From a virus, in IMG/VR virus record IMGVR_UViG_3300001130_000004: DNA of 14,358 bases. One strand, 5' to 3'. This document shows, piece by piece, positions 102 to 14,358 of the stretch. Every line of letters begins with the position of its first letter. Position 1 is the stretch's first letter. The position numbers were made by a program, and so were the translations under genes. Under the pieces are notes generated by a model that was given only the letters and a program-made list of their open reading frames with translations, made no database searches and had not been told where the DNA came from.

Positions 102-1982
102 GTTACAAACCAAGTAGATGTAGCAGGTGCTAAGGCCAACCAAGCTACACAACAAGCAACCATAGCTACACAGCAAGCAGAAGCAGCTAGACAGTCAGCT
201 ATTGATGCAGCTAATGTGACACCTTCTACTACTGGTATGGTAGAGGAAGCACCTAGAGACAACCAATTATATGGTCGTGTTGATGGTACATGGGGTTTAG
301 TCCCTACAGGTAGTACATCTAGTGGTACTGGCGCTGTTGATTCAGTTAATGGTATTGCACCTGATGCAGGTGGTAATGTCACTGTACCTATTCCTCAACC
401 TGCATCACAAGTAAGGAGTGATTGGAATGCAGCTGCGGGGATTGCTGTAATCCTCAATAAGCCTTCCTTATTTAGTGGGAGCTACAATGACCTAACTAAT
501 AAGCCAAGTGCTACCACAAGCTTCTCAGGTGACTATAATGACCTAACGAATGCACCTGAAATACCTATAGTTACCCCACAAGTCAACCCAGATTGGTATG
601 CAGTTAGTGGTAAAGCTGAAATACTTAACAAACCAGCCCTCTTTGATGGTCGTTATGAGAGCTTAACAGGTAAACCTCCTGCACCTACAGGTGATGGTAG
701 TACAACTAGTGTTACTAATAACAATCAGCTTACTAACGGTGCAGGGTATATAACTGACTCACCTGTGTCCACTTCTTGGTATGCTCGTAAAGGGGGTGCT
801 TGGGCTGAGATTGAGACAGGTGTAGCATTTAGTGGTGACTACAGAGACTTAACTAACCAACCTGTACTAAACACTGATGGAACTATTGGCAATGATGGTA
901 GTGGTTTCAATGGTGATTATAATGACTTAGTTAACAAACCCCCCTTGATTACAAGTAACACTCAAATCTTTAATGGTGCAGGTTACTTGGAAGATGCTAT
1001 TGCAGACAACAAGCAGTATATTCGTAAGAACGGGTCTTGGGTAGTGTTTGAAAGTAACGCAGGGAAAGGTCATCAAATTGCAGAAGCAGGACAGAGACTG
1101 TTATATATGTCCCACACCTACACTGAAGACCCTGCCCTACAGTTTAACTACTGGACTCATCCTAACCCTCATATTCCTTACCCATTGTATTTCTTAGGTC
1201 ACTTGTCCCCTTATATGGATTGGGTTACTGATGGGGCTTTAATTACACCTGAATATTTCAGCTACCTACCTTCAGGACGCTACTCTTTTGGGCAAGGTTC
1301 TTTTGAATCAGGACATCTACTAGCAGAACAGACAGGTTATATTGAAGTTGTTGAGGTAACTAGTCAACAGCAAATACCTACTATGGCTAATAATGCAGGG
1401 TTCACTAAGTGGTCTACTGGTGTTGTTCATGTTATTGACAATGACGACAAGATTATTTCTATTTATGACTTTAATCCTGCCACAGGGGATTTCATATTAA
1501 GAGCAGGTGGTGACAATTCTGGTGTAACAGCTTTCAGTGGTAGGTATATAGACTTAGCAGGTAAGCCTGTTTTGTTTAGTGGTAACTATAATGATTTAGC
1601 AAGTAAACCTTCACTATTCAGTGGTGATTATAATGACTTAGTGAATACCCCCGCCTATGCTACAAGCTTTTCAGGTGACTATACAGACTTAACAAGTAAA
1701 CCTTCACTGTTCAGTGGTGATTATACAGACTTAATTAATAAGCCAACGCCTGCCACAAGCTTCTCAGGTGATTATACAGACTTAATTAATAAGCCAAATA
1801 TTCCTATATTACCTACTAAACTCTCTCAGTTCACTAATGACATAGAGGACACCTTTGTAGCATCTAAGACTGAGAACAAGAGAACAGGTATAGCATTTGA
1901 GGAATGGATTGGTACACAAGCTCAGTATGATGCTATTACTACTAAAGATGCCAACACTCGCTACTGGATTACGGAGGCTTAA
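3..1982 (+). CDS. Tail fibre protein, C-terminal 659 codons. The 5' end of the same ORF is at 14050-14358. The full ORF is 2190 nt / 729 aa across the circular junction.
   Basis: The frame is open from the window edge, and the GTG at 216 in the ORF track is internal. It matches the frame of 14050-14358 through the 101-nt overlap. The N-terminal part is Ala/Gln/Ser/Asn-rich and coiled-coil-like. There are three 'APxDxxxYxRxxGxW'-type motifs (EEAPRDNQLYGRVDGTW, STSWYARKGGAW, DNKQYIRKNGSW). There are eleven 'FSGxYxDLxNKP' repeats of the kind widely seen in phage tail fibres. Stop is TAA at 1980-1982. Confidence 0.85.
   Translation, partial: VEANRAATQASLANSSATSSAVSESNALAAQQAVTNQVDVAGAKANQATQQATIATQQAEAARQSAIDAANVTPSTTGMVEEAPRDNQLYGRVDGTWGLVPTGSTSSGTGAVDSVNGIAPDAGGNVTVPIPQPASQVRSDWNAAAGIAVILNKPSLFSGSYNDLTNKPSATTSFSGDYNDLTNAPEIPIVTPQVNPDWYAVSGKAEILNKPALFDGRYESLTGKPPAPTGDGSTTSVTNNNQLTNGAGYITDSPVSTSWYARKGGAWAEIETGVAFSGDYRDLTNQPVLNTDGTIGNDGSGFNGDYNDLVNKPPLITSNTQIFNGAGYLEDAIADNKQYIRKNGSWVVFESNAGKGHQIAEAGQRLLYMSHTYTEDPALQFNYWTHPNPHIPYPLYFLGHLSPYMDWVTDGALITPEYFSYLPSGRYSFGQGSFESGHLLAEQTGYIEVVEVTSQQQIPTMANNAGFTKWSTGVVHVIDNDDKIISIYDFNPATGDFILRAGGDNSGVTAFSGRYIDLAGKPVLFSGNYNDLASKPSLFSGDYNDLVNTPAYATSFSGDYTDLTSKPSLFSGDYTDLINKPTPATSFSGDYTDLINKPNIPILPTKLSQFTNDIEDTFVASKTENKRTGIAFEEWIGTQAQYDAITTKDANTRYWITEA
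1716..1797 (+). repeat. Exact 31-nt direct repeat (1716-1746 and 1767-1797), 51 nt apart, inside the tail-fibre repeat block.
   Basis: ggtgattatacagacttaattaataagccaa occurs twice. Each copy encodes GDYTDLINKP. The 51-nt offset equals 17 codons, so copy-number change would stay in frame. Confidence 0.9.
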
Positions 1983-3624: not shown

Positions 3625-4089
3625 CCTAGTAGTATTGTATTAACATATAACTATAACTAATAGGAATGAGTGTATTAGAGTGTAGTGTATGAGACAGACT
3701 AATAGTGTTAGGCCATGTGTAGTAAGGGTTACAGCATGGTGGTGGTGACAGTACAGAGTGGGGAAGTATGTGAGTGGTGACAGTATGTTAGTGGAATATG
3801 TGGTGGTATGTATGCGTGTTGTTAAGCACACCTACTCTGCTATGTCAATGGCTTTATTGTAACCCCTAGGTGGGGGGGTAACGAAATAATTTGGGGGGAA
3901 TAATTGGGTTTTTGTTTCAAGCTTTTTAAATTAGCACCCTGTTTATTAGACAACTCTGCTGAGTCTTCCCCCTGAAGTGTGGGGAAATTCTCCTGTTAGA
4001 ATAGGAAACTAGCGAGAGCATTAAGTCAATCATTACATTAATACAACTTGTTAAGATGTTTCCCTAACACAACAGGACAGCAATGTCAA

Positions 4090-4098
4090 TGGTATAAT
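4090..4098 (+). promoter_or_regulatory. Candidate extended -10 promoter (TGgTATAAT) upstream of the lysis cassette.
   Basis: TGGTATAAT sits at 4090-4098. There is no good -35 (caacag at 4070-4075), and extended -10 promoters can work without one. It lies about 200 nt upstream of the first lysis-region ORF. Confidence 0.35.
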
Positions 4099-4302
4099 TG
4101 TGTGGTGATTACAATACTAACTTGACTCAGCTCAATCGGTGTGAACCCTCTCCCAAGATGATTGTTACATTACTTACAGGAAGGACACACCTTGTTGGCT
4201 TTATTTACAAAAATTAATTTGCGTTTCTCTTTGGAACGGTGTACCCCCAGTTATACATATGTGACCCCCCCCAATTAAACAAGCTGAATTTAAGGAAAAA
4301 AT

Positions 4303-4422
4303 ATGAATACTTTATTACCTGACTATACTTTAGCCCTATTATTGATGATGCCAATGGCTCTACTTGCCCTCTGTGTGGCTTGTAGTGTCCTATGTGGTGC
4401 TAGTGCCACGGAAAGGGAGTAA
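4303..4422 (+). CDS. Small hydrophobic, Cys-rich membrane peptide (39 aa). It may be a lysis accessory protein.
   Basis: My hand translation gives MNTLLPDYTLALLLMMPMALLALCVACSVLCGASATERE. An AAGGA lies about 6 nt upstream of the ATG. Stop is TAA at 4420-4422. The ORF is below the ORF-track size cutoff, has one predicted TM segment, and sits immediately upstream of the holin-like gene. Confidence 0.35.
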   Translation: MNTLLPDYTLALLLMMPMALLALCVACSVLCGASATERE

Positions 4423-4472
4423 GACCCACCTAAGAGGCTGTGAGAGCTTCTTAGCAACATAAGGAGAGACTA

Positions 4473-4691: not shown

Positions 4692-5175
4692 ATTAAGTTG
4701 GATTAGGACAGGTAGGGAGCTGGTGGGTACTAAAGAGATTAAGGGGAGGTTGCATAATAAAGCTATTGTTAAGATGCTCTCTTTCTTAGGGTCTTGGTGG
4801 TCAGAGGATGAAACCCCTTGGTGTGGTGTCTACACTGCTTACTGCCTAAAGAAGAACGGTGTGACTATTCCTAAGCATTGGTATAGAGCCTTAGACTATA
4901 AGAACTATGGTAATGCTCTTACTAAACCTGCTTACGGTTGTATTGCAATCAAAGCTAGGAGAGGTGGGGGTCATGTTACCTTTGTTGTAGGTAAGACTGG
5001 TGATGGTAGGCTAGTATGTATGGGTGGTAATCAGAATGACATGGTTAACTATGCTGTATATAGAGAAAGTGATTTTGACGAATTTAGATGGTATGGTTTG
5101 GGTACTCGACCTGCTACTAAACGTTATAACCTACCTACTCTTAAAGTAACAGCTACTAAGGTTACTGAAGCATAA
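4675..5175 (+). CDS. Endolysin, TIGR02594-family / NlpC-P60 (CHAP-like) cysteine peptidoglycan hydrolase.
   Basis: AGGAG lies 6 nt upstream of the ATG. The motifs DETPWCGVY (catalytic Cys), GGGHVTFVVG (His) and GGNQ, with their spacing, match my recollection of the phage-associated TIGR02594 family. It follows the holin-like gene and precedes a terminator. Confidence 0.8.
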   Translation: MSRWNELSWIRTGRELVGTKEIKGRLHNKAIVKMLSFLGSWWSEDETPWCGVYTAYCLKKNGVTIPKHWYRALDYKNYGNALTKPAYGCIAIKARRGGGHVTFVVGKTGDGRLVCMGGNQNDMVNYAVYRESDFDEFRWYGLGTRPATKRYNLPTLKVTATKVTEA

Positions 5176-5193: not shown

Positions 5194-5230
5194 AAAAAAG
5201 CCCTCACAATTAAGTGGGGGCTTTCCTTTA
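5194..5230. terminator. Bidirectional rho-independent terminator between the convergent endolysin and NTPase genes.
   Basis: An A6 run (5194-5199) precedes the stem GCCCTCAC (5200-5207), the loop AATTAA and the stem GTGGGGGC (5214-5221, one G.U pair). TTTCCTTTA follows. The flanking A-run and T-run allow termination in both directions. Confidence 0.8.
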
Positions 5231-5278
5231 TGTATAGATTATTGGATTATTTATATATATTATTGTTATATGTATAGA

Positions 5279-6646
5279 TTAATCATAGGTAGGCATATAA
5301 CCATCGTATAGCCATTGCTCTAGTAGGTTTCTCATACGTTCACTAGGAATATATAAGTCTATTGGTTGCTTGTTTCTTACTGCACTTCTAAAGAGCCATT
5401 GTAGTAGTGTGCTTAGGGCATAGTGGTCTTGACTTAGTTTAATACCATCAGCACTACTAGCTTTAATAAAGTTACTGTCTATAAATACATTCACTAAGTA
5501 TGCTAGATGGTCTGTATGAGCATAGTTATTAGTTGCCCTAGTATTGAAAGCAATCCACTTACTACCATAACGATTAACTTTACCTTTCCCCCTACTTATT
5601 GCTAACTTGTCGTCACTAAAGCAAGTCCATAGTCTACGTTCAGGTGCAATCTTTTCTCTTTGTTGCCACATATTCCACAAGTGATTATAAAGAGCTTTAC
5701 TGTCTTTGTTATTATTAACTCTGTCTTTCTTATAATGATTAGACGTTAGTGCATGTTTCTTTAAGTTCTTAGCACCATTAGCCGTAGTACCATAATCACC
5801 AATAGTATTCATTTTCTTGTCTTTATTAATAGTAATTAAATCTCTAATACTCTCTACTGTCTTACCAAAGTATTCTAATTCATAGTTGACATTACTTTGT
5901 TTAAGTAGTAAGGAAAACATAGACCCTTCAAACATATAGGTCATAATGACTACTTTCTTAAACTTACTCAGTATGTCAGCATCAAACTTTCTAATCACCT
6001 TGTTATTAAACTTATATAATAAACCTAAATCACAATCTCTAGCAAACTGCTCTACTTCCGTGTCTTTAGTGCAATCATAATCAGCAGGTTTACCATCAAG
6101 GTTAGCAAAGTGCTCTCTATGGAACTGTAAAGTATAACCATCTTCTTTAAGACTTAGCACACCATTCTCTAAGTAACGATTAACTGTCTTACTATTTAAT
6201 GTACAGTCAGCTTCATAGGCTATTAGTGCTTCATCAATAATCAATGTGTAGTCTTTACACTGTTCTAGTGTATTAGGGTCTAAGCTGTTTAGCAATGTAT
6301 GAGTAGACACTACATTATGTCTAGCATCAATCAATGACATAAGACCTGTAAGTTTACTACCATCTTTATTATTATTGTTAGGGTGTTTGAACTTTAACGC
6401 TGCTTGTGGTTCATCTAAGTAAGCATAAGTACCATCGTCATTAAGTTGTGGTGTTTGTGCTTCACCCTCACTAACTGTAGCAGCAATACGGTGGGCTTCA
6501 TCTAAGTAGGGAGAGCAATACATAAATAAATCATTGTCATAACTCATTAGACTATTAGTCTTACTAGCATCAATCATATAATCTATAATCTTATTGGTCT
6601 TACCACTAGACATAAGAGCGTCCCATACTGTAATATTACTTTGCAT
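5279..6646 (-). CDS. P-loop NTPase with helicase-like (SF2-like) motifs. It is a candidate replication initiator or helicase.
   Basis: Walker A is ALMSSGKT (aa 10-17) and Walker B is LIIDEA (aa 135-140). Downstream blocks are helicase-like: VVSTHTLL, MTYMFEGS, FNTRATNNY, and LLQWLFRSAVRN (motif VI-like). GAGGA lies 9 nt upstream of the ATG. It is the only minus-strand gene, diverges from the ori-like region, and has its own consensus promoter. Confidence 0.6.
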   Translation of the reverse strand: MQSNITVWDALMSSGKTNKIIDYMIDASKTNSLMSYDNDLFMYCSPYLDEAHRIAATVSEGEAQTPQLNDDGTYAYLDEPQAALKFKHPNNNNKDGSKLTGLMSLIDARHNVVSTHTLLNSLDPNTLEQCKDYTLIIDEALIAYEADCTLNSKTVNRYLENGVLSLKEDGYTLQFHREHFANLDGKPADYDCTKDTEVEQFARDCDLGLLYKFNNKVIRKFDADILSKFKKVVIMTYMFEGSMFSLLLKQSNVNYELEYFGKTVESIRDLITINKDKKMNTIGDYGTTANGAKNLKKHALTSNHYKKDRVNNNKDSKALYNHLWNMWQQREKIAPERRLWTCFSDDKLAISRGKGKVNRYGSKWIAFNTRATNNYAHTDHLAYLVNVFIDSNFIKASSADGIKLSQDHYALSTLLQWLFRSAVRNKQPIDLYIPSERMRNLLEQWLYDGYMPTYD

Positions 6647-6713
6647 CTGTTGTATTCCTCTGTAGGCTATTTAAGTTATTAAGAAGTAGTGCCTTTATTA
6701 CTTTCTATACCCT

Positions 6714-6741
6714 ATTATAGCCTGTCTTTCAGTAATGTCAA
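6714..6741 (-). promoter_or_regulatory. Consensus sigma70-type promoter (leftward) for the NTPase gene.
   Basis: The minus strand reads TTGACA (6741-6736), a 16-nt spacer, then TATAAT (6719-6714). This is about 70 nt upstream of the ATG at 6646. Confidence 0.8.
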
Positions 6742-6788
6742 TAGATTATTACATCCTAATTGTTATATTTCAATGATGAATACTCACT

Positions 6789-6903
6789 ATTACCTCCTAC
6801 CACATGAATACTATTCAGTTAAGGGATTGCACCAAGAAAAGGAAAAGATTAAAGATTAGCACTATAAAGAGTATTACTATAATAATCACTATTCTTGTAA
6901 GAC
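6789..6903. repeat. Left arm of a large imperfect inverted repeat in the divergent control region.
   Basis: The reverse complement of 6789-6903 aligns with 7168-7297 at roughly 70-75% identity by eye. Exact blocks are attacctcctacc (6789-6801) versus ggtaggaggtaat (7285-7297), and taatcactattcttgta (6883-6899) versus tacaagaatagtgatta (7084-7100). The arm contains the tandem AAGATTA AAGATTA. Confidence 0.85.
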
Positions 6904-7167
6904 TACTTAGCAACTATTCAGCTGAATTGGCTTACTGAATACCACCTATTTAGACCTCTTACTAATACCATTATTTACTATTATAACATTTAGTGAGTAT
7001 ATTAATTCCTGTAAGCCTTACACAGCATAGGTTTGAACTCGTATTCTATAAGAGAACTAATACTTTTATATATAAGAAACACCTACAAGAATAGTGATTA
7101 CTTTAATAATATTTTACTAAAAATACTTTCATCTTTGCAGACTTCCAGTAAGAGTCTCTTACATATA

Positions 7168-7297
7168 TTCCTACAAGAATGACAGTATTACTATTAATAC
7201 TCTTTTATTGCATCTTTAATCTTTTTCTTTTAATCCCTTTCTTTTTAGTGCAATCTTTTATTACTTTAACATATTGTTTGGGTAGGTAGGAGGTAAT
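7168..7297. repeat. Right arm of the large imperfect inverted repeat. A partial third copy lies at 7083-7135.
   Basis: See the left arm. CTACAAGAAT occurs as a direct repeat at 7083-7092 and 7171-7180, and inverted as TTACAAGAAT at 6891-6900. Shared blocks are AATACTCTTT, ATCTTTAATCTTTT, GTGCAATC and GGTAGGAGGTAAT. Confidence 0.85.
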
Positions 7298-7354
7298 TAT
7301 TACACATTGTTACATATAGACCTATAATATAGTAAGTAGAATGTTATAAATCAC

Positions 7355-7382
7355 TTGACAGTTGTGTAAAGTATTGTATAAT
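7355..7382 (+). promoter_or_regulatory. Consensus sigma70-type promoter (rightward) for the long + strand operon.
   Basis: TTGACA (7355-7360), a 16-nt spacer, then TATAAT (7377-7382), about 85 nt upstream of the RHH gene. The flanks resemble the leftward promoter in mirror image: (G/A)ATGT(A/T)ATAA(-/A)TC..TTGACA and TATAATAG(G/A)G. Confidence 0.8.
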
Positions 7383-7465
7383 AGAGGAATAGGGTTACGA
7401 ATACTAAGTAGTTCAGGAGTGTCCTATTTAGTACCTATGCAAACAATAGCTTATAAGAGGTGTAT

Positions 7466-7645
7466 ATGAAATACGAAATAGATGGTGAAGAAGTATATAA
7501 TAATAACAAACTGATTAGACGTAGATTCTACCTGAGTAAAGAAAGTATGGACTACCTCAATCAGATTACTATTGAACAAGATTTAGCTCCTAGTGTTTTG
7601 TTAGATGAAATACTAAAGAAGTTAGCAGAGAAGCGGAGAGGGTAG
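7466..7645 (+). CDS. Ribbon-helix-helix (CopG/Arc-like) DNA-binding protein, probably a transcriptional regulator.
   Basis: The ATG at 7466 lies 5 nt after AGAGG, and the 7460 start in the ORF track is a GTG. The layout is beta-strand (RRRFYLS), helix (KESMDYLNQI), helix (APSVLLDEILKKLAE), about 59 aa in total. It is the first gene after the promoter. Confidence 0.6.
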   Translation: MKYEIDGEEVYNNNKLIRRRFYLSKESMDYLNQITIEQDLAPSVLLDEILKKLAEKRRG

Positions 7646-7717
7646 CAGCATGGCTACTATGTTCTAGTACAAGGTAGTGTGGTACTTTAACAACTTATTT
7701 AAGCAGTACAAACAACA

Positions 7718-7741
7718 GCCCTCTATATGAGGGTTTTTCTT
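7718..7741 (+). terminator. Short hairpin plus T-run, a candidate attenuator or early terminator after the RHH gene.
   Basis: GCCCTC (7718-7723), loop TATAT, GAGGGT (7729-7734), followed by TTTTTCTT. The stem has only 5 G/C-rich pairs plus one G.U pair, so it may be leaky. Confidence 0.45.
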
Positions 7742-7762
7742 ATGCCTACAGAGGTGAATTAT

Positions 7763-8269
7763 ATGTCAGTAATATTTGATGGTAAAGGTTTTAAAGCTGA
7801 GAAGCTGTGTGTTAAACAATTTAATGGTACTTTGTTAAGTGCTAAGTCTTTCCAGTATAGAGACATAGACTGTTATGTCAAGAATAAGAAAGGTAAACAA
7901 TATACAGCTAGTGTTAAAGACCAAACTTATTCAATGAAGCAAGGCTATGACACTATACAAATAGAGCTTAAACAAACTAATACCAGAAACAATAGTAGTA
8001 TTCAAGGGTGCTTTAGAAAGAATGAGAGTGACTTGTACTTTTGGCTAGTGTGGTATGAAGGTAAAGCTCAGTGGTTCTTATGTGAGAGTAAGAAGCTAAA
8101 GAAGTATGTTGATGCCAATCTTAGCACACTAAGAACATGGACTACAAGTAGTAAGACAGAAGAAAAGAATAGAAACTACAGACGCACCTATGACCGTTCA
8201 GAGGGTGTAATGATTAACATGGCTGCCTTATTAACAATAGGAGCTTTAAAGCCACTAGAGGGGCAATAG
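7763..8269 (+). CDS. Hypothetical protein (168 aa) with a possible PD-(D/E)xK nuclease-like motif.
   Basis: The ATG at 7763 lies 6 nt after GAGGTG. The 7727 start in the ORF track lies inside the hairpin loop and has no SD. Motif candidates are KAEK..., DIDCYV, VKDQ-x14-IELK. The C-terminus is basic. No family was recognised with confidence. Confidence 0.5.
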   Translation: MSVIFDGKGFKAEKLCVKQFNGTLLSAKSFQYRDIDCYVKNKKGKQYTASVKDQTYSMKQGYDTIQIELKQTNTRNNSSIQGCFRKNESDLYFWLVWYEGKAQWFLCESKKLKKYVDANLSTLRTWTTSSKTEEKNRNYRRTYDRSEGVMINMAALLTIGALKPLEGQ

Positions 8270-8273
8270 GAGT

Positions 8274-8510
8274 ATGTACGAGAAAGTTACAGACATACCG
8301 CTACACGTATTTAACAATAAAGAATGCACTAAAACACCAAGCCCAAAGTTGCGAGAGTACCTTAACTATATGCTAACTAATCACCCCAATGACTTAGATT
8401 ACCTTTGGCGTTACACACAACAGTATGTAAAGCATGGTGGTTGCTACTATATTTCATTTAAAGATTGGCTCAATAAACTAACCAAAGACTTAACTAAGCA
8501 GGAGGAATAA
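8274..8510 (+). CDS. Hypothetical protein (78 aa).
   Basis: The ORF is tightly packed between its neighbours. AGGAG lies only 1 nt from the ATG, which is suboptimal spacing, so the start is uncertain. No motif was recognised. Confidence 0.5.
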   Translation: MYEKVTDIPLHVFNNKECTKTPSPKLREYLNYMLTNHPNDLDYLWRYTQQYVKHGGCYYISFKDWLNKLTKDLTKQEE

Positions 8511-8511
8511 T

Positions 8512-9819
8512 GTGGCGAACACTAAGCAGCAATCACAACCTCTCCACGTAGAGAACACAGCATTAATTTTAGGCAAGAAAGACCTAAATGTCAACAACGC
8601 ATTCCACACTTACCGAGAGATGAAACTAGATGGTATTGTTTCAGGCTCTATGTCTTTCATTAAAGCTATTCTCTCTAAAGGTAATTTTGTTATTCCTTAC
8701 CATGCAAAGAGTTCAGCAAGAGAGAAGAAAGTAATTGATGCACTCAACGTCTCCTTAGACAATATGGAAGATTACGACAAGAAACGACAAGTAAGTAACT
8801 GGCTACAGATGCTAGATTATGGTTGCTCACTTAATGAGGTTGTCTGTAAACGTAAAGATGGCATATTCGTATTCGACACAATCACTCCTATTCACCTTAG
8901 CTCAGTTAATCGCTTTGAGATGAAAGGTGGCAAACTAAAGAGTCTTAAACTAGATGCACCTGACAACGATGGATTACTTGTTGATGTTGACAATGCACCT
9001 AAGACACTTAAAGGGGAGAAGGTCTTATTCTTTAGGCTAGAACCTGACAGTGATTTTCCTTTAGGTAAGAGTTTACTTTATGGTGCATACACAGCATGGA
9101 AAACTAAGAAGATTTTACAAGAGTATGAAGCTATTGGTGTTGCTAAAAACCTCAGTGGTGTACTAGATGTAAAAGTCCCTAGTGAATACATTAATAAATA
9201 CTTTGAAGATGCAACAAGTAATGAAGCAATATTTGTTAACTCACTAATCAACCAAGCTGAAATGTTACATGCAGGTAAAGGTTCTTATATTCTAAGTGCT
9301 AGTGACACCAACCAAAATGGTAAACCTCTCTTTGACATAACTACTGTAGGTGGTGGTGGTGGTAATGCTCAGAACTATAATGTTGGTCAAGCTATTGCTC
9401 GTTACAACCAAGAAATTCAGCTGTCATTACAAACAACTGTACTTAGTATGGGTGCTGACGGTTCAGGTTCACTAGCTCTTAGTAACGACATGGTAAACTT
9501 AATGGCTCTATTCGTAGAGAACATTCAAAAGGTTATTAGTTCAGAATTTAAGAAAGCTATTCGTATTGCTTTTGAACTTAACGGGTTAGGTTCAGAGAAT
9601 ATTCCTGAATTAGTTTGGGACAAAGTACAACCTTTGTCATGGGACGACTTCACTAAAGGCTGGCAGCGTCTTATTCAGGCAGGTGGTGTTACCCCTACAG
9701 AAGATTTAGAAGCGTTCTTACGTGGTGTAGGTGAAGCTCCTGATGCTGACTACAATAAACGATTAGAGACTGAGACTAAAGCAGACCCCAATGAGAGAGT
9801 AGGAGACAAGACACTATGA
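8512..9819 (+). CDS. Portal protein (Mu gp29/DUF935-like by pattern).
   Basis: The GTG start lies 6 nt after GGAGG (8501-8505). The protein is 435 aa and sits at the head of the portal-scaffold-decoration-capsid module. The N-terminal pattern YREMKLDGIVSGSMSFIKAIL...FVIP and the C-terminal TPTEDLEAFLRGVG resemble portal families from memory. Not verified by search. Confidence 0.7.
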   Translation: MANTKQQSQPLHVENTALILGKKDLNVNNAFHTYREMKLDGIVSGSMSFIKAILSKGNFVIPYHAKSSAREKKVIDALNVSLDNMEDYDKKRQVSNWLQMLDYGCSLNEVVCKRKDGIFVFDTITPIHLSSVNRFEMKGGKLKSLKLDAPDNDGLLVDVDNAPKTLKGEKVLFFRLEPDSDFPLGKSLLYGAYTAWKTKKILQEYEAIGVAKNLSGVLDVKVPSEYINKYFEDATSNEAIFVNSLINQAEMLHAGKGSYILSASDTNQNGKPLFDITTVGGGGGNAQNYNVGQAIARYNQEIQLSLQTTVLSMGADGSGSLALSNDMVNLMALFVENIQKVISSEFKKAIRIAFELNGLGSENIPELVWDKVQPLSWDDFTKGWQRLIQAGGVTPTEDLEAFLRGVGEAPDADYNKRLETETKADPNERVGDKTL

Positions 9820-11947: not shown

Positions 11948-11979
11948 GGGGGATTGCTTAATTGCAGTCCCCCTTTTTT
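11948..11979 (+). terminator. Rho-independent terminator downstream of the capsid gene.
   Basis: GGGGGATTGC (11948-11957), loop TTAATT, GCAGTCCCCC (11964-11973), giving a 10-bp stem with one G.U pair. A T6 run follows (11974-11979). Confidence 0.85.
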
Positions 11980-12006
11980 ATATGTCAAACCTATAGAGGA
12001 TTCAAC

Positions 12007-13587
12007 ATGGCAATAGTAGCTAAGAGAGTGACTAAAAAGAGGGTTGCAGCACCTAAAAAGAAAGAGGCCTTTGTAGCTGAGAAGAATAAAGGTGGTAGAC
12101 CTGTAGTACAAAAAGACTTCACCTTCAATATTGACCAAGACCTTCTAAAGAGTGGTATAACAATACATGCACCACTTAGTATTAAACAAGAGACTTACCT
12201 AAACGACACAGAGAATGATGTAATTGTATGGGGTGGTGCAGCGTCAGCAGGTAAGACACAGCTGTCACTACTGCAACTAATGCTTAATGGTATGTATGAC
12301 AAGGACTACGTTGGTGGTATTGCTAGACAGTCTATTAAACAGATGAAAATGGCGGGTTCATTATGGTCTACAGGAGTAAAACTATTCTCCCCCTATGGCA
12401 TTACAAGTAATAAGATTGAGAACACATGGGCTTTCCCTAGTGGTGCTGAAGTAAAGTGTCATTACTTAGATGGTAACACTGATGATTGGCATGGTTCACA
12501 GATGACACAAGCACTAGTAGATGAAGCACAGCAATGTAAAGAAGATGATGTGTGGTTCTTAACCTCCCGACTACGTTCTATGAGTAAACAGAAGCACCAA
12601 TTAAGACTAACCTGTAACCCCCTTAGTACGTCATTCCTCGCGTCTTGGCTAACTAAAGCAGGGTATATAGGTGAAGACGGTTTCCCACTACCTGAGAGGG
12701 ATGGTAAGACCACCTACCTACTACAAGTAGAGGGTGACTTAACATGGTATGAGACTTATGCAGACATGGTAGAAGCTGTGGGTGCTGAACAAGCTAAGTT
12801 CTCTATGAAGTTTGTATTCTATTCAGCTAACGTCTATGACAACCCCTATGTTAGAAAGCACTTACCTCAATACGTGCATAAACTAGAGAACCAAAGCACT
12901 GTCAACAGAGCTAGGTACTTGTTAGGTAACTGGACTGTAAGGGAAGAGAGTGATGGTTATATAGACCGTGATTGGTTCAAAGAGATTGCACTAAGAAATG
13001 TTCCTCACAACCTGCCTGATGTTAGAGCCTATGACTTAGCATCAACTAAACCCCATGCTGCTAACAAGAACCCTGATTGGACAAGAGGTGTTAAAGCTAA
13101 GTATGACAAAGAGACAGGTATATTTTATATAGTTGACATGGTAGGTATAAGAGACACCCCTGCTATGGTGCAAGCACTAATAGAGAACACAGCCAGTAGT
13201 GATGGCAGAGAGTGTTACATCTCTATTCCTGTAGATGCTGGTGGTTCTGGTGTTATTGTAGCAGACCAAAAGAAAGGTAGGTTGTCTACTATGGGCTACA
13301 AAGTAATCCTAGACAAGACACGCAAAGGTAAGTTAGCGCGAGCTGAACCATTTCTTATAGCATTACAAGAGGGGAAGGTCTACTTAGTACAAAGTGTATT
13401 TAGTACAGCGAACCTTACAGAATTAGAAAGTTTTGATGGTGGCAGGAACTCAGGACAACATGACGACATTATAGATGCTATTGCTTCTTGCTTTAATGCA
13501 CTGAATGGCAATAGTTTAATACCAACAATTAGAATGGCTAACCTTAGTGCAGACAAATTAAGATTAGGTGGGAGTACCTTACTATGA
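12007..13587 (+). CDS. terL: Terminase large subunit with a ~50-aa basic N-terminal extension.
   Basis: The ATG at 12007 lies 6 nt after AGAGGA. The TTG at 11962 in the ORF track sits inside the terminator hairpin. Walker A is GGAASAGKT (about 12232-12258) and Walker B is ALVDEAQQ. The C-terminal nuclease-type motif is GQHDDIIDAIA. The N-terminus is MAIVAKRVTKKRVAAPKKKEAFVAEKNKGGRPV. Confidence 0.9.
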   Translation: MAIVAKRVTKKRVAAPKKKEAFVAEKNKGGRPVVQKDFTFNIDQDLLKSGITIHAPLSIKQETYLNDTENDVIVWGGAASAGKTQLSLLQLMLNGMYDKDYVGGIARQSIKQMKMAGSLWSTGVKLFSPYGITSNKIENTWAFPSGAEVKCHYLDGNTDDWHGSQMTQALVDEAQQCKEDDVWFLTSRLRSMSKQKHQLRLTCNPLSTSFLASWLTKAGYIGEDGFPLPERDGKTTYLLQVEGDLTWYETYADMVEAVGAEQAKFSMKFVFYSANVYDNPYVRKHLPQYVHKLENQSTVNRARYLLGNWTVREESDGYIDRDWFKEIALRNVPHNLPDVRAYDLASTKPHAANKNPDWTRGVKAKYDKETGIFYIVDMVGIRDTPAMVQALIENTASSDGRECYISIPVDAGGSGVIVADQKKGRLSTMGYKVILDKTRKGKLARAEPFLIALQEGKVYLVQSVFSTANLTELESFDGGRNSGQHDDIIDAIASCFNALNGNSLIPTIRMANLSADKLRLGGSTLL

Positions 13588-14049: not shown

Positions 14050-14358
14050 ATGAGTATTCAAAATATAGACCAGTTAACAGGTAGGATTGGTGTAGCTACA
14101 GACAAATTAGAAGTAGCTGTAGTAGCTGTCCGAGAGTCAGCTGGGGTAGTGGTGGGTGGTACAGGTGAGTCAGCACAATCAGCTATTGAAGCTGCTAACT
14201 CAGCAGTAGTAGCAAATCAAGCAGCACAAGCGGCTAACGTAAGTCGTGAAGCAGCAAGAGTAGAAGCCAACAGAGCAGCTACCCAAGCCTCTTTAGCTAA
14301 TTCAAGTGCTACATCTAGTGCTGTTAGTGAGAGTAATGCACTAGCAGCACAACAGGCT
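14050..14358 (+). CDS. Tail fibre protein, N-terminal 103 codons. The ORF continues across the circular junction into 102-1982.
   Basis: The ATG at 14050 lies 1 nt after the upstream TAA. The frame stays open to the window end. Translation starts MSIQNIDQLTGRIGVATDKLEVAVVAVRESAG...AANVSREAARVEANRAATQASLANSS. Positions 14258-14358 equal 1-101, in the same frame as 3-1982. Confidence 0.85.
   Translation, partial: MSIQNIDQLTGRIGVATDKLEVAVVAVRESAGVVVGGTGESAQSAIEAANSAVVANQAAQAANVSREAARVEANRAATQASLANSSATSSAVSESNALAAQQA
14258..14358. repeat. Terminal overlap, copy B (identical to 1-101).
   Basis: See copy A. Confidence 0.95.

Follow-up and report, generated by a model that had tools for sequence, protein, structure and literature searches.

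What does a tailed phage of 14.3 kb do with a gene-free stretch of about 800 bp? The window analysed here, 14,358 nt long, is a complete circular phage genome (14,257 bp), and this genome belongs to a previously undescribed family of miniature tailed phages. The stretch in question, an 813-bp interval (6647–7459), lies between an ATPase gene and the gene for a ribbon-helix-helix (RHH) protein. An initial annotation, made from the DNA alone, had read it as a two-fold symmetric control region with an embedded iteron-type origin. The interval was compared with its counterparts in 12 syntenic genomes of 11–14 kb (L numbers below); a blastn search of positions 5200–8600 against phages yielded no match. 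Taken as a whole, the reading that we favour, in which divergent promoters and mirrored control sites enclose a replication origin, is plausible but tentative.

Genome setting and divergent promoters

The leftward unit consists of a single gene (5279..6646, minus strand), the only minus-strand gene of the genome, encoding a 455-aa P-loop ATPase that was classed as YonV-like by matches to phrog_2467 and PF27199 (YonV_C). The rightward unit is headed by the 59-aa RHH protein gene (7466..7645, plus strand; gene call and AF2/Foldseek). Immediately 3' of this gene the terminator scan placed a terminator-like hairpin (7717..7735, plus strand), with an equivalent in L012 and L002, and all structural and lysis genes follow.

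Each side of the interval carries a promoter matching the TTGACA-16-TATAAT consensus at 12/12 positions: PL (6714..6741, minus strand) and PR (7355..7382, plus strand). They lie 60 and 77 nt, respectively, upstream of SD-led start codons, with inferred transcription starts near 6707 and 7389 and 5'UTRs of approximately 60 and 77 nt. As the initial annotation had reported, the two sites face outward; they are the only perfect matches in the window, about 614 bp apart, where 0.0275 (approx. 0.03) would be expected, and 0/400 Markov-1 simulations gave two. PL is kept at 11–12/12 in L002, L003, L228, L229, L230, L006, L012 and L148–150, and both sites are at 11–12/12 in L002, L003, L229, L230, L012, L148 and L149. 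The distance between the −35 boxes stays within 597–667 bp in eight relatives whose ATPase identity falls from 85% to 46%. From this consensus match and conservation, the divergent sigma-70-type promoters are very probably real. PL would transcribe the single leftward ATPase gene, and PR the RHH gene together with the remaining genes.

The flanks of the two promoters had also been described as similar in mirror image. In this genome the resemblance is weak (38/88 positions when the 12 hexamer bases are counted, with 6/16 for the spacer), but it is strong in relatives, reaching 57/88 for the flanks and 14/16 for the spacer. Within single genomes, most relatives have spacer sequence in common between left and right, with matches at 14/16 positions in L003 and at 12/16 in both L229 and L149.

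Mirrored modules and a candidate regulator

Read outward, each promoter is preceded by a module that consists of one or more GTGCWAATC motifs, a lineage-specific block and then the −35 and −10 boxes. Motif searches located two inward-pointing copies of this motif, motif A (AAGRGATT(A)GCAC), in the left arm (6825..6862, plus strand), 29 bp apart with a AAAGATTA tandem between them (6844 and 6851), which is the AAGATTA/TAATCTT-type tandem noted earlier. A further copy lies in the right arm (7247..7255, minus strand; AGTGCAATC on the plus strand), approximately 100 bp upstream of the PR −35 box, and ATAAAAGATTGCAC is kept at this position in L003, L230, L228, L229, L012, L148, L149 and L010. Of the family members examined, all but L006 and L013 have motif A in the right arm, and most have it in the left; it lies 85–130 bp upstream of the −35 boxes, and three of its eight genome-wide matches fall inside the 813-bp interval.

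Upstream of PL, a 5-codon mini-ORF, VSIHH*, accompanies the block GGTAGGAGGTAAT (together 6770..6801, minus strand), which is shared by the window, L002, L003, L230, L228 and L229; a scan of viral contigs with this block returned single SD-like chance matches only. Just upstream of PR (7281..7335, plus strand), GGTAGGTAGGAGGTAAT is followed by a TTACACA...ATACAAATCTAT-type block, which an alignment of 12 family members recovered with few exceptions, also in the members at 46–52% ATPase identity. The GGAGG-like cores within the interval had been reported to lack downstream ORFs. This is true of the right core, which has no such mini-ORF, but the left core sits at SD distance from VSIHH* (6787..6770), which is kept as ATG-xxx-xxx-CAT-CAT-stop in 4/5 of the next-closest relatives, the stop being lost in L002. 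Throughout the family, motif A and the upstream blocks keep their mirrored orientation, and the promoters and the RHH gene are conserved too. The earlier reading of a two-sided control region therefore holds, and an interpretation as divergent promoters with operators is well supported.

The predicted RHH identity of the small protein was confirmed at the level of fold. Its AF2 model (pLDDT 79) gave top Foldseek matches to StnY, CopG (2cpg/1b01), Arc (1par), ParG and MazE; almost all matches were RHH proteins, with rmsd 1.0–1.6 Å and target TM 0.75–0.85. HMM searches with the protein found no sequence-level family membership, and HMM assignment was likewise negative for a 180-aa and a 78-aa protein of the genome. 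The motif LIRRRFYLSKE is invariant in the family bar one K-to-R change in L006, and so is the putative DNA-reading β-strand. In 12/12 relatives this gene is the first RHH-homologous gene after PR, directly adjacent to it in most, with a small TM ORF preceding it in some.

The mirrored sites make shared regulation of the two promoters probable, with one regulator acting on both. The best candidate would be a dimer or tetramer of the RHH protein, although we put this assignment forward with less confidence than the shared regulation itself. The ‘NTPase’, also suggested previously as a dimeric regulator, can be set aside in that role, given its SF2 helicase-like fold. For a simple RHH repressor, sites as far from the −35 boxes as motif A (85–130 bp upstream) are unusual.

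In P22 immI (Arc/Mnt, divergent Pant/Pmnt) and in the CopG/RepA system of pMV158, an RHH autoregulator is the first gene of the operon that it controls. The present locus resembles them in its small RHH protein encoded first after a strong promoter and in its divergent promoters with short repeated or symmetric DNA motifs, and in pMV158 the same RHH protein controls the replication gene. It differs in that the promoters are some 614 bp apart without overlap, that the candidate sites lie in the promoter spacers as well as far upstream, and that a sequence-level family was not found for its RHH protein. A second parallel is the central control region of phi29, where early A2b/A2c and late A3 are governed by protein p4. 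Here too a small phage would have its whole programme set by one compact region, with divergent promoters (early and late in phi29) and a small regulator on inverted-repeat sites. Phi29, however, has a protein-primed polymerase, terminal origins and a control region of only about 220 bp; the phage studied here has a circular assembly and no polymerase, and the two share no protein or DNA homology.

The AT-rich centre and the replication origin question

Between the promoters, a long imperfect inverted repeat was recovered close to the limits first proposed (6789–6903 and 7168–7297). Exact inverted blocks are colinear at 6789–6801/7285–7297 (13 nt, forming the exact outer ends), 6825–6832/7248–7255, 6843–6856/7212–7225 (14 nt), 6866–6876/7195–7205 and 6891–6899/7172–7180, and therefore, together with folding, define arms at 6789..6899 and 7172..7297. 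The 17-nt exact inverted pair (6883–6899/7084–7100) and the direct repeat 88 bp apart (CCTACAAGAAT at 7082 and 7170) were found as described. Folded as single-stranded DNA, 6742–7354 gave z −8.2 to −9.9 against dinucleotide shuffles, and the interval contains 43 inverted 8-mers against 11.3 expected (z 7.7). Self-complementarity is thus beyond chance in this genome, but among eight family members tested the inverted 8-mer excess is strong in the window only. The long repeat is absent from L003 and L230 (fold z −0.75 and +1.0; others −3.3 to −4.9), and a large inverted repeat or cruciform was accordingly rejected as a necessary feature. Both the long repeat and the CTACAAGA motif are lineage-specific; the repeat would represent an exaggerated local version of the family's two-fold layout rather than a required cruciform.

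A second repeat, motif B, is a CTACAAGAAT element of approximately 11–28 nt with three irregularly spaced copies: CCTACAAGAATAGTGATTACTTTAATAATA (7082..7110, plus strand) and CCTACAAGAATGACAGTATTACTATTAATA (7170..7198, plus strand) are direct and 88 bp apart, and CTTACAAGAATAGTGATTA (6883..6903, minus strand) is inverted and lies some 185 bp away. The motif is confined to closer relatives, being absent in L012, L148, L149 and L013; distant relatives have unrelated short repeats instead, with 9–12-bp tandem repeats in the centre. Direct 8-mer repeats as a class are enriched in 8/8 family members tested (z 2.6–10.4).

The centre itself (6904..7167) is unique, AT-rich DNA, defined by stability and repeat analysis, with palindromes ATTCAGCTGAAT (6915–6926) and GTAAGAGTCTCTTAC (7141–7155). 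The least stable duplex of the whole genome falls at 7036–7135 for 100-bp windows and at 7047–7246 for 200-bp windows (z 3.2, 76–79% AT), in agreement with the very AT-rich centre originally placed at about 7040–7130. Beyond the closest relative, L002, the centre cannot be aligned. Identity between the window and L002 is 0.78 over the interval and 0.72–0.77 at four-fold degenerate sites, and therefore constraint on the centre is not demonstrated. Alignment across relatives, proposed at the outset as a check, thus supports the promoters, motif A and the upstream blocks but not motif B, the centre or the long inverted repeat.

Could this DNA hold the replication origin? The approximately 600 bp between the promoters would be untranscribed, cis-acting DNA, for which an origin is the most likely content; we place one inside the interval tentatively. 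This DNA melts more readily than any other stretch of the genome and is rich in short repeats; it would sit in a negatively supercoiled domain created by two strong divergent promoters, and it adjoins the only helicase-like gene. On its AF2 model (pLDDT 71), the 455-aa protein is a YonV-like, SF2-helicase-like ATPase, matching CasDinG, XPD and DEAD-box SF2 helicases at TM 0.42–0.44, and Psychrobacter phage D'Alembert carries a homologue within its replication module. Because no polymerase, primase or classical initiator was found among the phage proteins, replication would rely on this ATPase together with the host replisome.

The detrended GC skew, an analysis suggested earlier, has its minimum at 7275, inside the interval, and its maximum at 5102. 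Both turning points mark where the sole minus-strand gene begins and ends; the skew is therefore confounded by gene orientation and gives no independent evidence of an origin. The ‘iteron-type’ label did not survive. An adjacent AT-rich unwinding element is present (7036–7135, 7047–7246), but at least three direct 17–22-bp repeats in helical phase are not, the three CTACAAGAAT copies being irregular and one of them inverted. No DnaA box (TTATCCACA, up to one mismatch) occurs in the whole genome, against 4.9 expected, and a winged-helix Rep gene is lacking, with no Rep_3, TrfA, RepA or lambda-O-type initiator in any of the genome's proteins. A DnaA-dependent origin was rejected on the absence of the box.

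Lambda ori with pR transcription and the iteron plasmids pPS10, RK2 and F are transcriptionally activated origins in which repeats and a DUE lie beside the initiator gene. Like them, the interval has a segment that is AT-rich and melts easily, with repeated motifs of protein-binding type on its flanks, adjoins one replication-type gene and has strong transcription nearby, which can help opening. Unlike them, it has no 17–22-bp iterons in helical register and no DnaA boxes, the gene next door encodes an SF2 helicase-like ATPase rather than an O- or Rep-type winged-helix initiator, and the putative origin has both promoters facing outward from it, with none reading through it.

An alternative that we consider rather unlikely is that the interval serves transcriptional control only. 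The divergent early promoters would then have mirrored operator or UP-type modules, the centre would be a spacer or an H-NS-/IHF-type or looping platform, and the origin would lie elsewhere, for example in a second gene-free region (3625–4300). This is consistent with all family-wide conservation sitting in the promoter-proximal arms, with a centre that evolves approximately neutrally and is unalignable between subgroups, with the lack of DnaA boxes, and with the presence of the second region in all relatives (approx. 0.7–1.1 kb) at a conserved position. Against it, the promoter spacing is held across deep divergence, all members tested show an excess of direct repeats and the centre is the least stable DNA of the genome. 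The second region, moreover, is already hypervariable when the two closest genomes are compared, which is not what an origin matched to a conserved protein would show, and in plasmid relatives the ATPase gene travels with its upstream region as a shared module (see below). As an observation in its own right, the second region could hold either the origin or a pac site.

A centromere-like or pac site, at which a small terminase or the RHH protein, in the role of a ParG/ParR/omega-type adaptor, would bind the repeats for segregation or the start of headful packaging, is improbable. ParG, ParR and omega-type RHH proteins do bind repeat arrays overlapping their own promoters, and ParG is among the fold matches here; the tandem repeats in the centre of distant relatives, the lack of an integrase (profile searches of the genome's proteins) and the maintenance of phage-plasmid relatives as plasmids point the same way, as do a terminase of the T4 headful type and the failure to identify a small terminase among the genome's proteins. 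However, a regular repeat array is missing from the window's interval, the ATPase encoded beside it has the fold of SF2 enzymes and not that of ParA, ParM or TubZ, and in the phage-plasmid relatives parA is a separate gene of their own. As to packaging, pac sites usually lie in or beside terS, yet nothing ties the interval to the terminase gene (11962–13587).

The initial annotation had allowed that the interval might simply encode small proteins or non-coding RNAs, and this was not borne out. No ORF of at least 60 aa is present, as stated originally, the longest in 6647–7459 being 56 aa, and an all-frame comparison of ORFs of at least 25 aa across 12 relatives found none conserved between subgroups, with matches in several frames; hidden protein genes were rejected, the 5-codon mini-ORF aside. 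An RNA gene was likewise rejected: the interval has no Rfam covariance model match at E up to 1, no tRNA or tmRNA was found in it, it contains no terminator in the window, L003 or L012, and the RNA fold of the centre on both strands is not significant (z approx. −1.6). Small RNAs or micro-proteins are thus highly improbable as its purpose, even though a strong SD, start, four codons and stop are kept in 5/6 close genomes (the window and 4/5 closest relatives) and a weaker internal promoter-like site at 6856–6883 (10/12; 9/12 in L002) could give transcripts, since such internal sites occur only at chance frequency (window, L003, L012) and the right-arm GGAGG has no ORF.

Plasmid relatives and wider meaning

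Homologues of the ATPase are also found in rep-less Acinetobacter phage-plasmids. The distribution of its homologues makes Acinetobacter, or another member of the Moraxellaceae, the likely host of the mini-phage. The 37-kb phage-plasmid pTS37365, to which no Rep type has been assigned (PMC10272872), revealed no Rep, primase or polymerase in the 30 proteins scanned, although it retains uncharacterized proteins that could be its initiator. Its ATPase homologue is preceded by 1.3 kb of ORF-free DNA, in which a 12/12 promoter and three 19-nt repeats were found. The only DNA that pTS37365 shares with the unrelated 47-kb CP038502 comprises the ATPase gene with its upstream region (83% identity over 2.3 kb), parA and approximately 320 bp of a small neighbouring gene, a pattern that lends indirect support to the origin reading. 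For one plasmid of the family bearing the ATPase gene it was published that a ‘rep gene was not found’ (PMC5571222); one YonV-bearing ‘plasmid’ record has been classed elsewhere as a circularized genomic island.

Together, pTS37365 and the pBJAB0715/pNDM-GJ02 group (PMC5571222, PMC10272872) resemble the mini-phage in several respects: a homologous ATPase (38% aa identity), an upstream region of 1.0–1.3 kb that is ORF-free, AT-rich and repeat-bearing and contains a 12/12 sigma-70 promoter, an operon on its far side that runs in the opposite direction (towards the virion genes in the phage-plasmid) and no recognizable polymerase or Rep. They differ in that their repeats are 18–19-nt partial palindromes, one overlapping the promoter, that no mirrored second consensus promoter was found and that a par locus is present. 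There is also no significant DNA similarity: comparison of the interval with plasmids gave one 42-nt chance match only, and comparison with the plasmid upstream regions gave nothing significant. The 8-mer CAAGACAA is common to the plasmid repeats and to motif B of some relatives, a post hoc and weak observation. A long upstream gap was rejected as a general trait of YonV genes, being seen in the nearest clade only (median 239 bp against a 117-bp baseline; 55 loci).

These parallels raise a broader, and at present doubtful, proposal: that the YonV-like ATPase (PF27199) and its upstream repeat-bearing, AT-rich region form an unrecognized replicon type, an initiator-helicase with its origin, common to the polymerase-less mini-phages of 12–14 kb, podovirus-like Acinetobacter phage-plasmids and those Acinetobacter resistance plasmids to which typing schemes give ‘no identifiable Rep’. 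The mini-phage origin would lie between the mirrored promoters, where one RHH regulator and the supercoiling from divergent transcription would couple expression to initiation.

Were the promoters and operators the only part to hold, the interval would be an ordinary, though unusually symmetric, early control region. Should the favoured reading of promoters, mirrored control and origin hold, one of the smallest known tailed-phage genomes would have its single switchboard here: two host-type promoters, with about 600 bp of cis-acting DNA, would be enough to run transcription and, probably, replication as well. Positions 6650–7460 with the gene at 5279–6646 make a defined fragment for studying the replication of such minimal phages. 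They also offer a candidate for the replication module still missing from those phage-plasmids and resistance plasmids of Acinetobacter that are reported to lack an identifiable rep gene (PMC5571222, PMC9927589, PMC10272872, PMC12284255).

A family of miniature tailed phages

Bases 1–101 of the window are identical to 14258–14358, which makes the assembly circular and complete at 14,257 bp, and a second, independent assembly of the same genome (L001) is likewise circular. Genes for a portal (Mu-type), a major capsid protein (E-type) and a large terminase (T4-type) are present, as are genes for tail-fibre-like proteins, a CHAP lysin and a protein resembling holins. Among the encoded proteins we found none that is a polymerase, primase, integrase or known initiator. 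All genes lie on the plus strand with the sole exception of 5279–6646. Using this minus-strand gene, we retrieved 12 syntenic relatives of 11–14 kb from sewage-type and other metagenomes, with protein identities to the window ranging from 85% down to 46%. No DNA-level relative was found among isolated phages, and the capsid and portal are less than 30% identical to those of any isolated phage. The window and its 12 relatives constitute a previously undescribed family of miniature tailed phages.

The tail-fibre-like protein encoded at 216–1982 (+) contains many copies of a repeat of approximately 14 residues (FSGDYNDLTNKP-type); its gene spans the assembly junction and is called as 729 aa in L001. 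An unlisted ORF of 39 aa (MNTLLPDYTLALLLMMPMALLALCVAC..., 4304–4423, +), just upstream of the holin-like gene, has a lipobox-like LALC motif and may encode a spanin or small lipoprotein. Every relative also has a second gene-free stretch of 0.7–1.1 kb between the tail-fibre-like and lysis genes (window 3625–4300; L002 8830–9770; L003 11421–12524; L006 3458–4578; L009 3581–4441; L011 2948–3890). The stretch is rich in G on the plus strand and has runs of G and C (GGTGGGGGGGTAAC and GACCCCCCCCAATT, for example). Its sequence is hypervariable, to the point that even the two closest genomes cannot be aligned across it, and RNA folding gives z-scores of only −1.1 to −1.8. It is a candidate pac site, origin or host-range-linked element.

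Divergent promoters and a mirrored control region

Perfect TTGACA-16-TATAAT sites occur just twice in the genome (0.03 expected by chance), facing outward from a gene-free interval: the leftward promoter P_L at 6741–6714 (−) and the rightward P_R at 7355–7382 (+). Divergent near-consensus promoters are kept in the relatives, 597–667 bp apart from −35 to −35, and the pair is very probably real. The initial annotation also described similar promoter flanks, a point that needs correction: outside the hexamers the two window sites are barely alike (38/88 positions overall, 6/16 in the spacer). In most relatives, the two promoters do share their spacer (14/16 in L003, 12/16 in both L229 and L149). 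Near-consensus (11/12) antisense promoters were also seen at 7881–7854 (−) and 8594–8566 (−), inside a 180-aa gene and the start of the portal gene; the former is kept in L002, and its predicted product is an antisense RNA heading back to the first gene after P_R and a bidirectional hairpin at 7719–7733.

The other listed elements, namely arms, repeats, an AT-rich centre and an absence of ORFs, were all found alongside the promoters. The inverted arms consist of exact blocks that are colinear on both sides (6789, 6825, 6843, 6866 and 6891 versus 7297, 7255, 7225, 7205 and 7180), setting their limits at 6789–6899 and 7172–7297. Both the 17-nt inverted pair (6883–6899/7084–7100) and the outer pair of 13 nt match exactly, and the suggested folding of the interval as single-stranded DNA gave a z-score of about −8 to −10. 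CCTACAAGAAT occurs twice, 88 bp apart, AAAGATTA is in tandem, and duplex stability reaches its genome-wide minimum at 7036–7246, in both 100-bp and 200-bp windows. No ORF of 60 aa or more is present. The accompanying statement that GGAGG-like cores are not followed by ORFs is contradicted on the left, where a 5-codon mini-ORF (VSIHH*) follows and is retained in four of the five next-closest relatives.

Comparison across relatives separated these elements: the promoters and their mirrored upstream modules are kept, whereas the long inverted repeat, the CTACAAGA motif and the centre are not. Each module contains one to four copies per arm of an inward-pointing AAAGAYT(W)GCAC motif; a TTACACA...ATACAAATCTAT block lies immediately upstream of P_R in nearly all family members, and a GGTAGGAGGTAAT block is found in both arms in closer relatives. 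The long inverted repeat is absent from L003 and L230 (z −0.75 and +1.0), and its exaggerated form in the window genome seems to be an elaboration, particular to this lineage, of a two-fold design common to the family. The CTACAAGA motif is missing from the distant subgroup, and the central 390 bp or so can be aligned only with the closest relative. Interval identity in that comparison (78%) is no better than that of four-fold degenerate sites (72–77%), so it cannot demonstrate constraint on the centre. What persists in all members is the interval length and an excess of short direct repeats, significant in 8/8 members tested (z 2.6 to 10.4), with repeat sequences that differ from subgroup to subgroup.

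Shared regulation and a possible origin

A gene for a 57–67-aa protein behind P_R, followed by a terminator, is kept in the relatives. An HMM search with the 59-aa window protein (7466–7645, +) yielded no match, while its predicted structure matched ribbon-helix-helix (RHH) proteins almost exclusively (StnY, CopG, Arc, ParG and MazE; 1.0–1.6 Å). Apart from one K-to-R change in L006, the whole family has the same β-strand segment, LIRRRFYLSKE, and the recognised DNA site should therefore likewise be conserved family-wide; the inward-pointing GCAC motif and the promoter-proximal blocks are candidate targets. In more distant relatives, a small hydrophobic ORF (e.g. MLFIAFLIFLLIWKLLDIVGLYMLTKNIPLTKDEVLN), absent in the window, lies between P_R and the RHH gene (L012 at about 9180–9290 in locus coordinates, L148/L149, L010 and L013).

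We propose a mechanism whose best-supported steps are that two host-type promoters would fire outward, P_L driving the helicase-like ATPase and P_R the RHH protein, then everything else via read-through past the terminator. RHH would bind the mirrored sites and set how active P_L and P_R are. The origin would be the AT- and repeat-rich core between the two promoters, its opening aided by negative supercoiling accumulating between the divergent transcription units, and the ATPase would act on it together with the host replisome. Shared regulation of the promoters is probable; RHH as the shared regulator is plausible, a step below that, and an origin inside the interval equally so. The proposed iteron-type origin failed its defining tests, with no phased iterons, no Rep family and no DnaA box: the 9-mer TTATCCACA, allowing up to one mismatch, is missing from both strands of the whole window genome (4.9 expected from shuffles), which may reflect avoidance. 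The region would work like the origin-plus-operator module of lambda or iteron plasmids and the RHH-controlled regions of P22 immI or pMV158; its sequence belongs to no described family.

The kept promoters and modules could also be read as pure transcription control, with the repeat-rich centre as a structural spacer, which we consider rather unlikely. A centromere or pac site is improbable. Small RNAs or micro-peptides are very unlikely: the interior has no ORF conserved among relatives, no Rfam match, no tRNA and no significant RNA structure at its centre, and in the window, L003 and L012 there is no terminator inside the interval and promoter-like sites are no more frequent than chance predicts. 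Untranscribed cis-acting DNA is the simplest reading of the interior.

YonV-like ATPases on Acinetobacter phage-plasmids

The 455-aa ATPase encoded at 5279–6646 (−) is a member of PF27199 (YonV_C) and phrog_2467, and its predicted structure is similar to those of SF2 helicases such as CasDinG, XPD and the DEAD-box proteins (TM 0.42–0.44). In Psychrobacter phage D'Alembert, a homologue is located among replication genes. Acinetobacter plasmids carry homologues that are 38% identical; one of these plasmids, pTS37365, is a 37-kb podovirus-like phage-plasmid that was entered without a Rep type (PMC10272872) and has no polymerase, primase or Rep in the 30 proteins scanned. The 1.3 kb that its ATPase gene faces is free of ORFs and contains a perfect sigma-70 promoter together with a 19-nt repeat present three times; beyond it, a divergent operon runs into virion genes, an arrangement that matches the mini-phage in gross layout. 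pTS37365 and the 47-kb resistance element CP038502 are otherwise unrelated and have no DNA in common except the upstream region with the ATPase gene (83% identity over 2.3 kb), parA and approximately 320 bp within a small adjoining gene. Across pTS37365 and pBJAB0715/pNDM-GJ02-type elements (gene plus upstream region at L254 5936–8314, L256 24164–26820 and L255 42995–45307), the ORF-free region spans 1.0–1.3 kb and contains, besides a perfect sigma-70 promoter, AAGACAAGGTTTTGTCT in triplicate at spacings of about 201 and 327 bp. These elements are recorded in the literature as being without an identifiable rep gene, and typing papers stress that many Acinetobacter plasmids lack an identifiable Rep (PMC9927589, PMC12284255).

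A replicon reading carries caveats: others have classified one YonV-bearing record as a genomic island in circularised form, pTS37365 still holds uncharacterised proteins, and the long upstream gap is limited to the nearest ATPase clade. Taken together, the plasmid-shared module, the D'Alembert neighbourhood and the rep-less records lend credibility to the ATPase gene and its upstream region as a replicon; more tentatively, the YonV-like ATPase might be the basis of a new replicon type.
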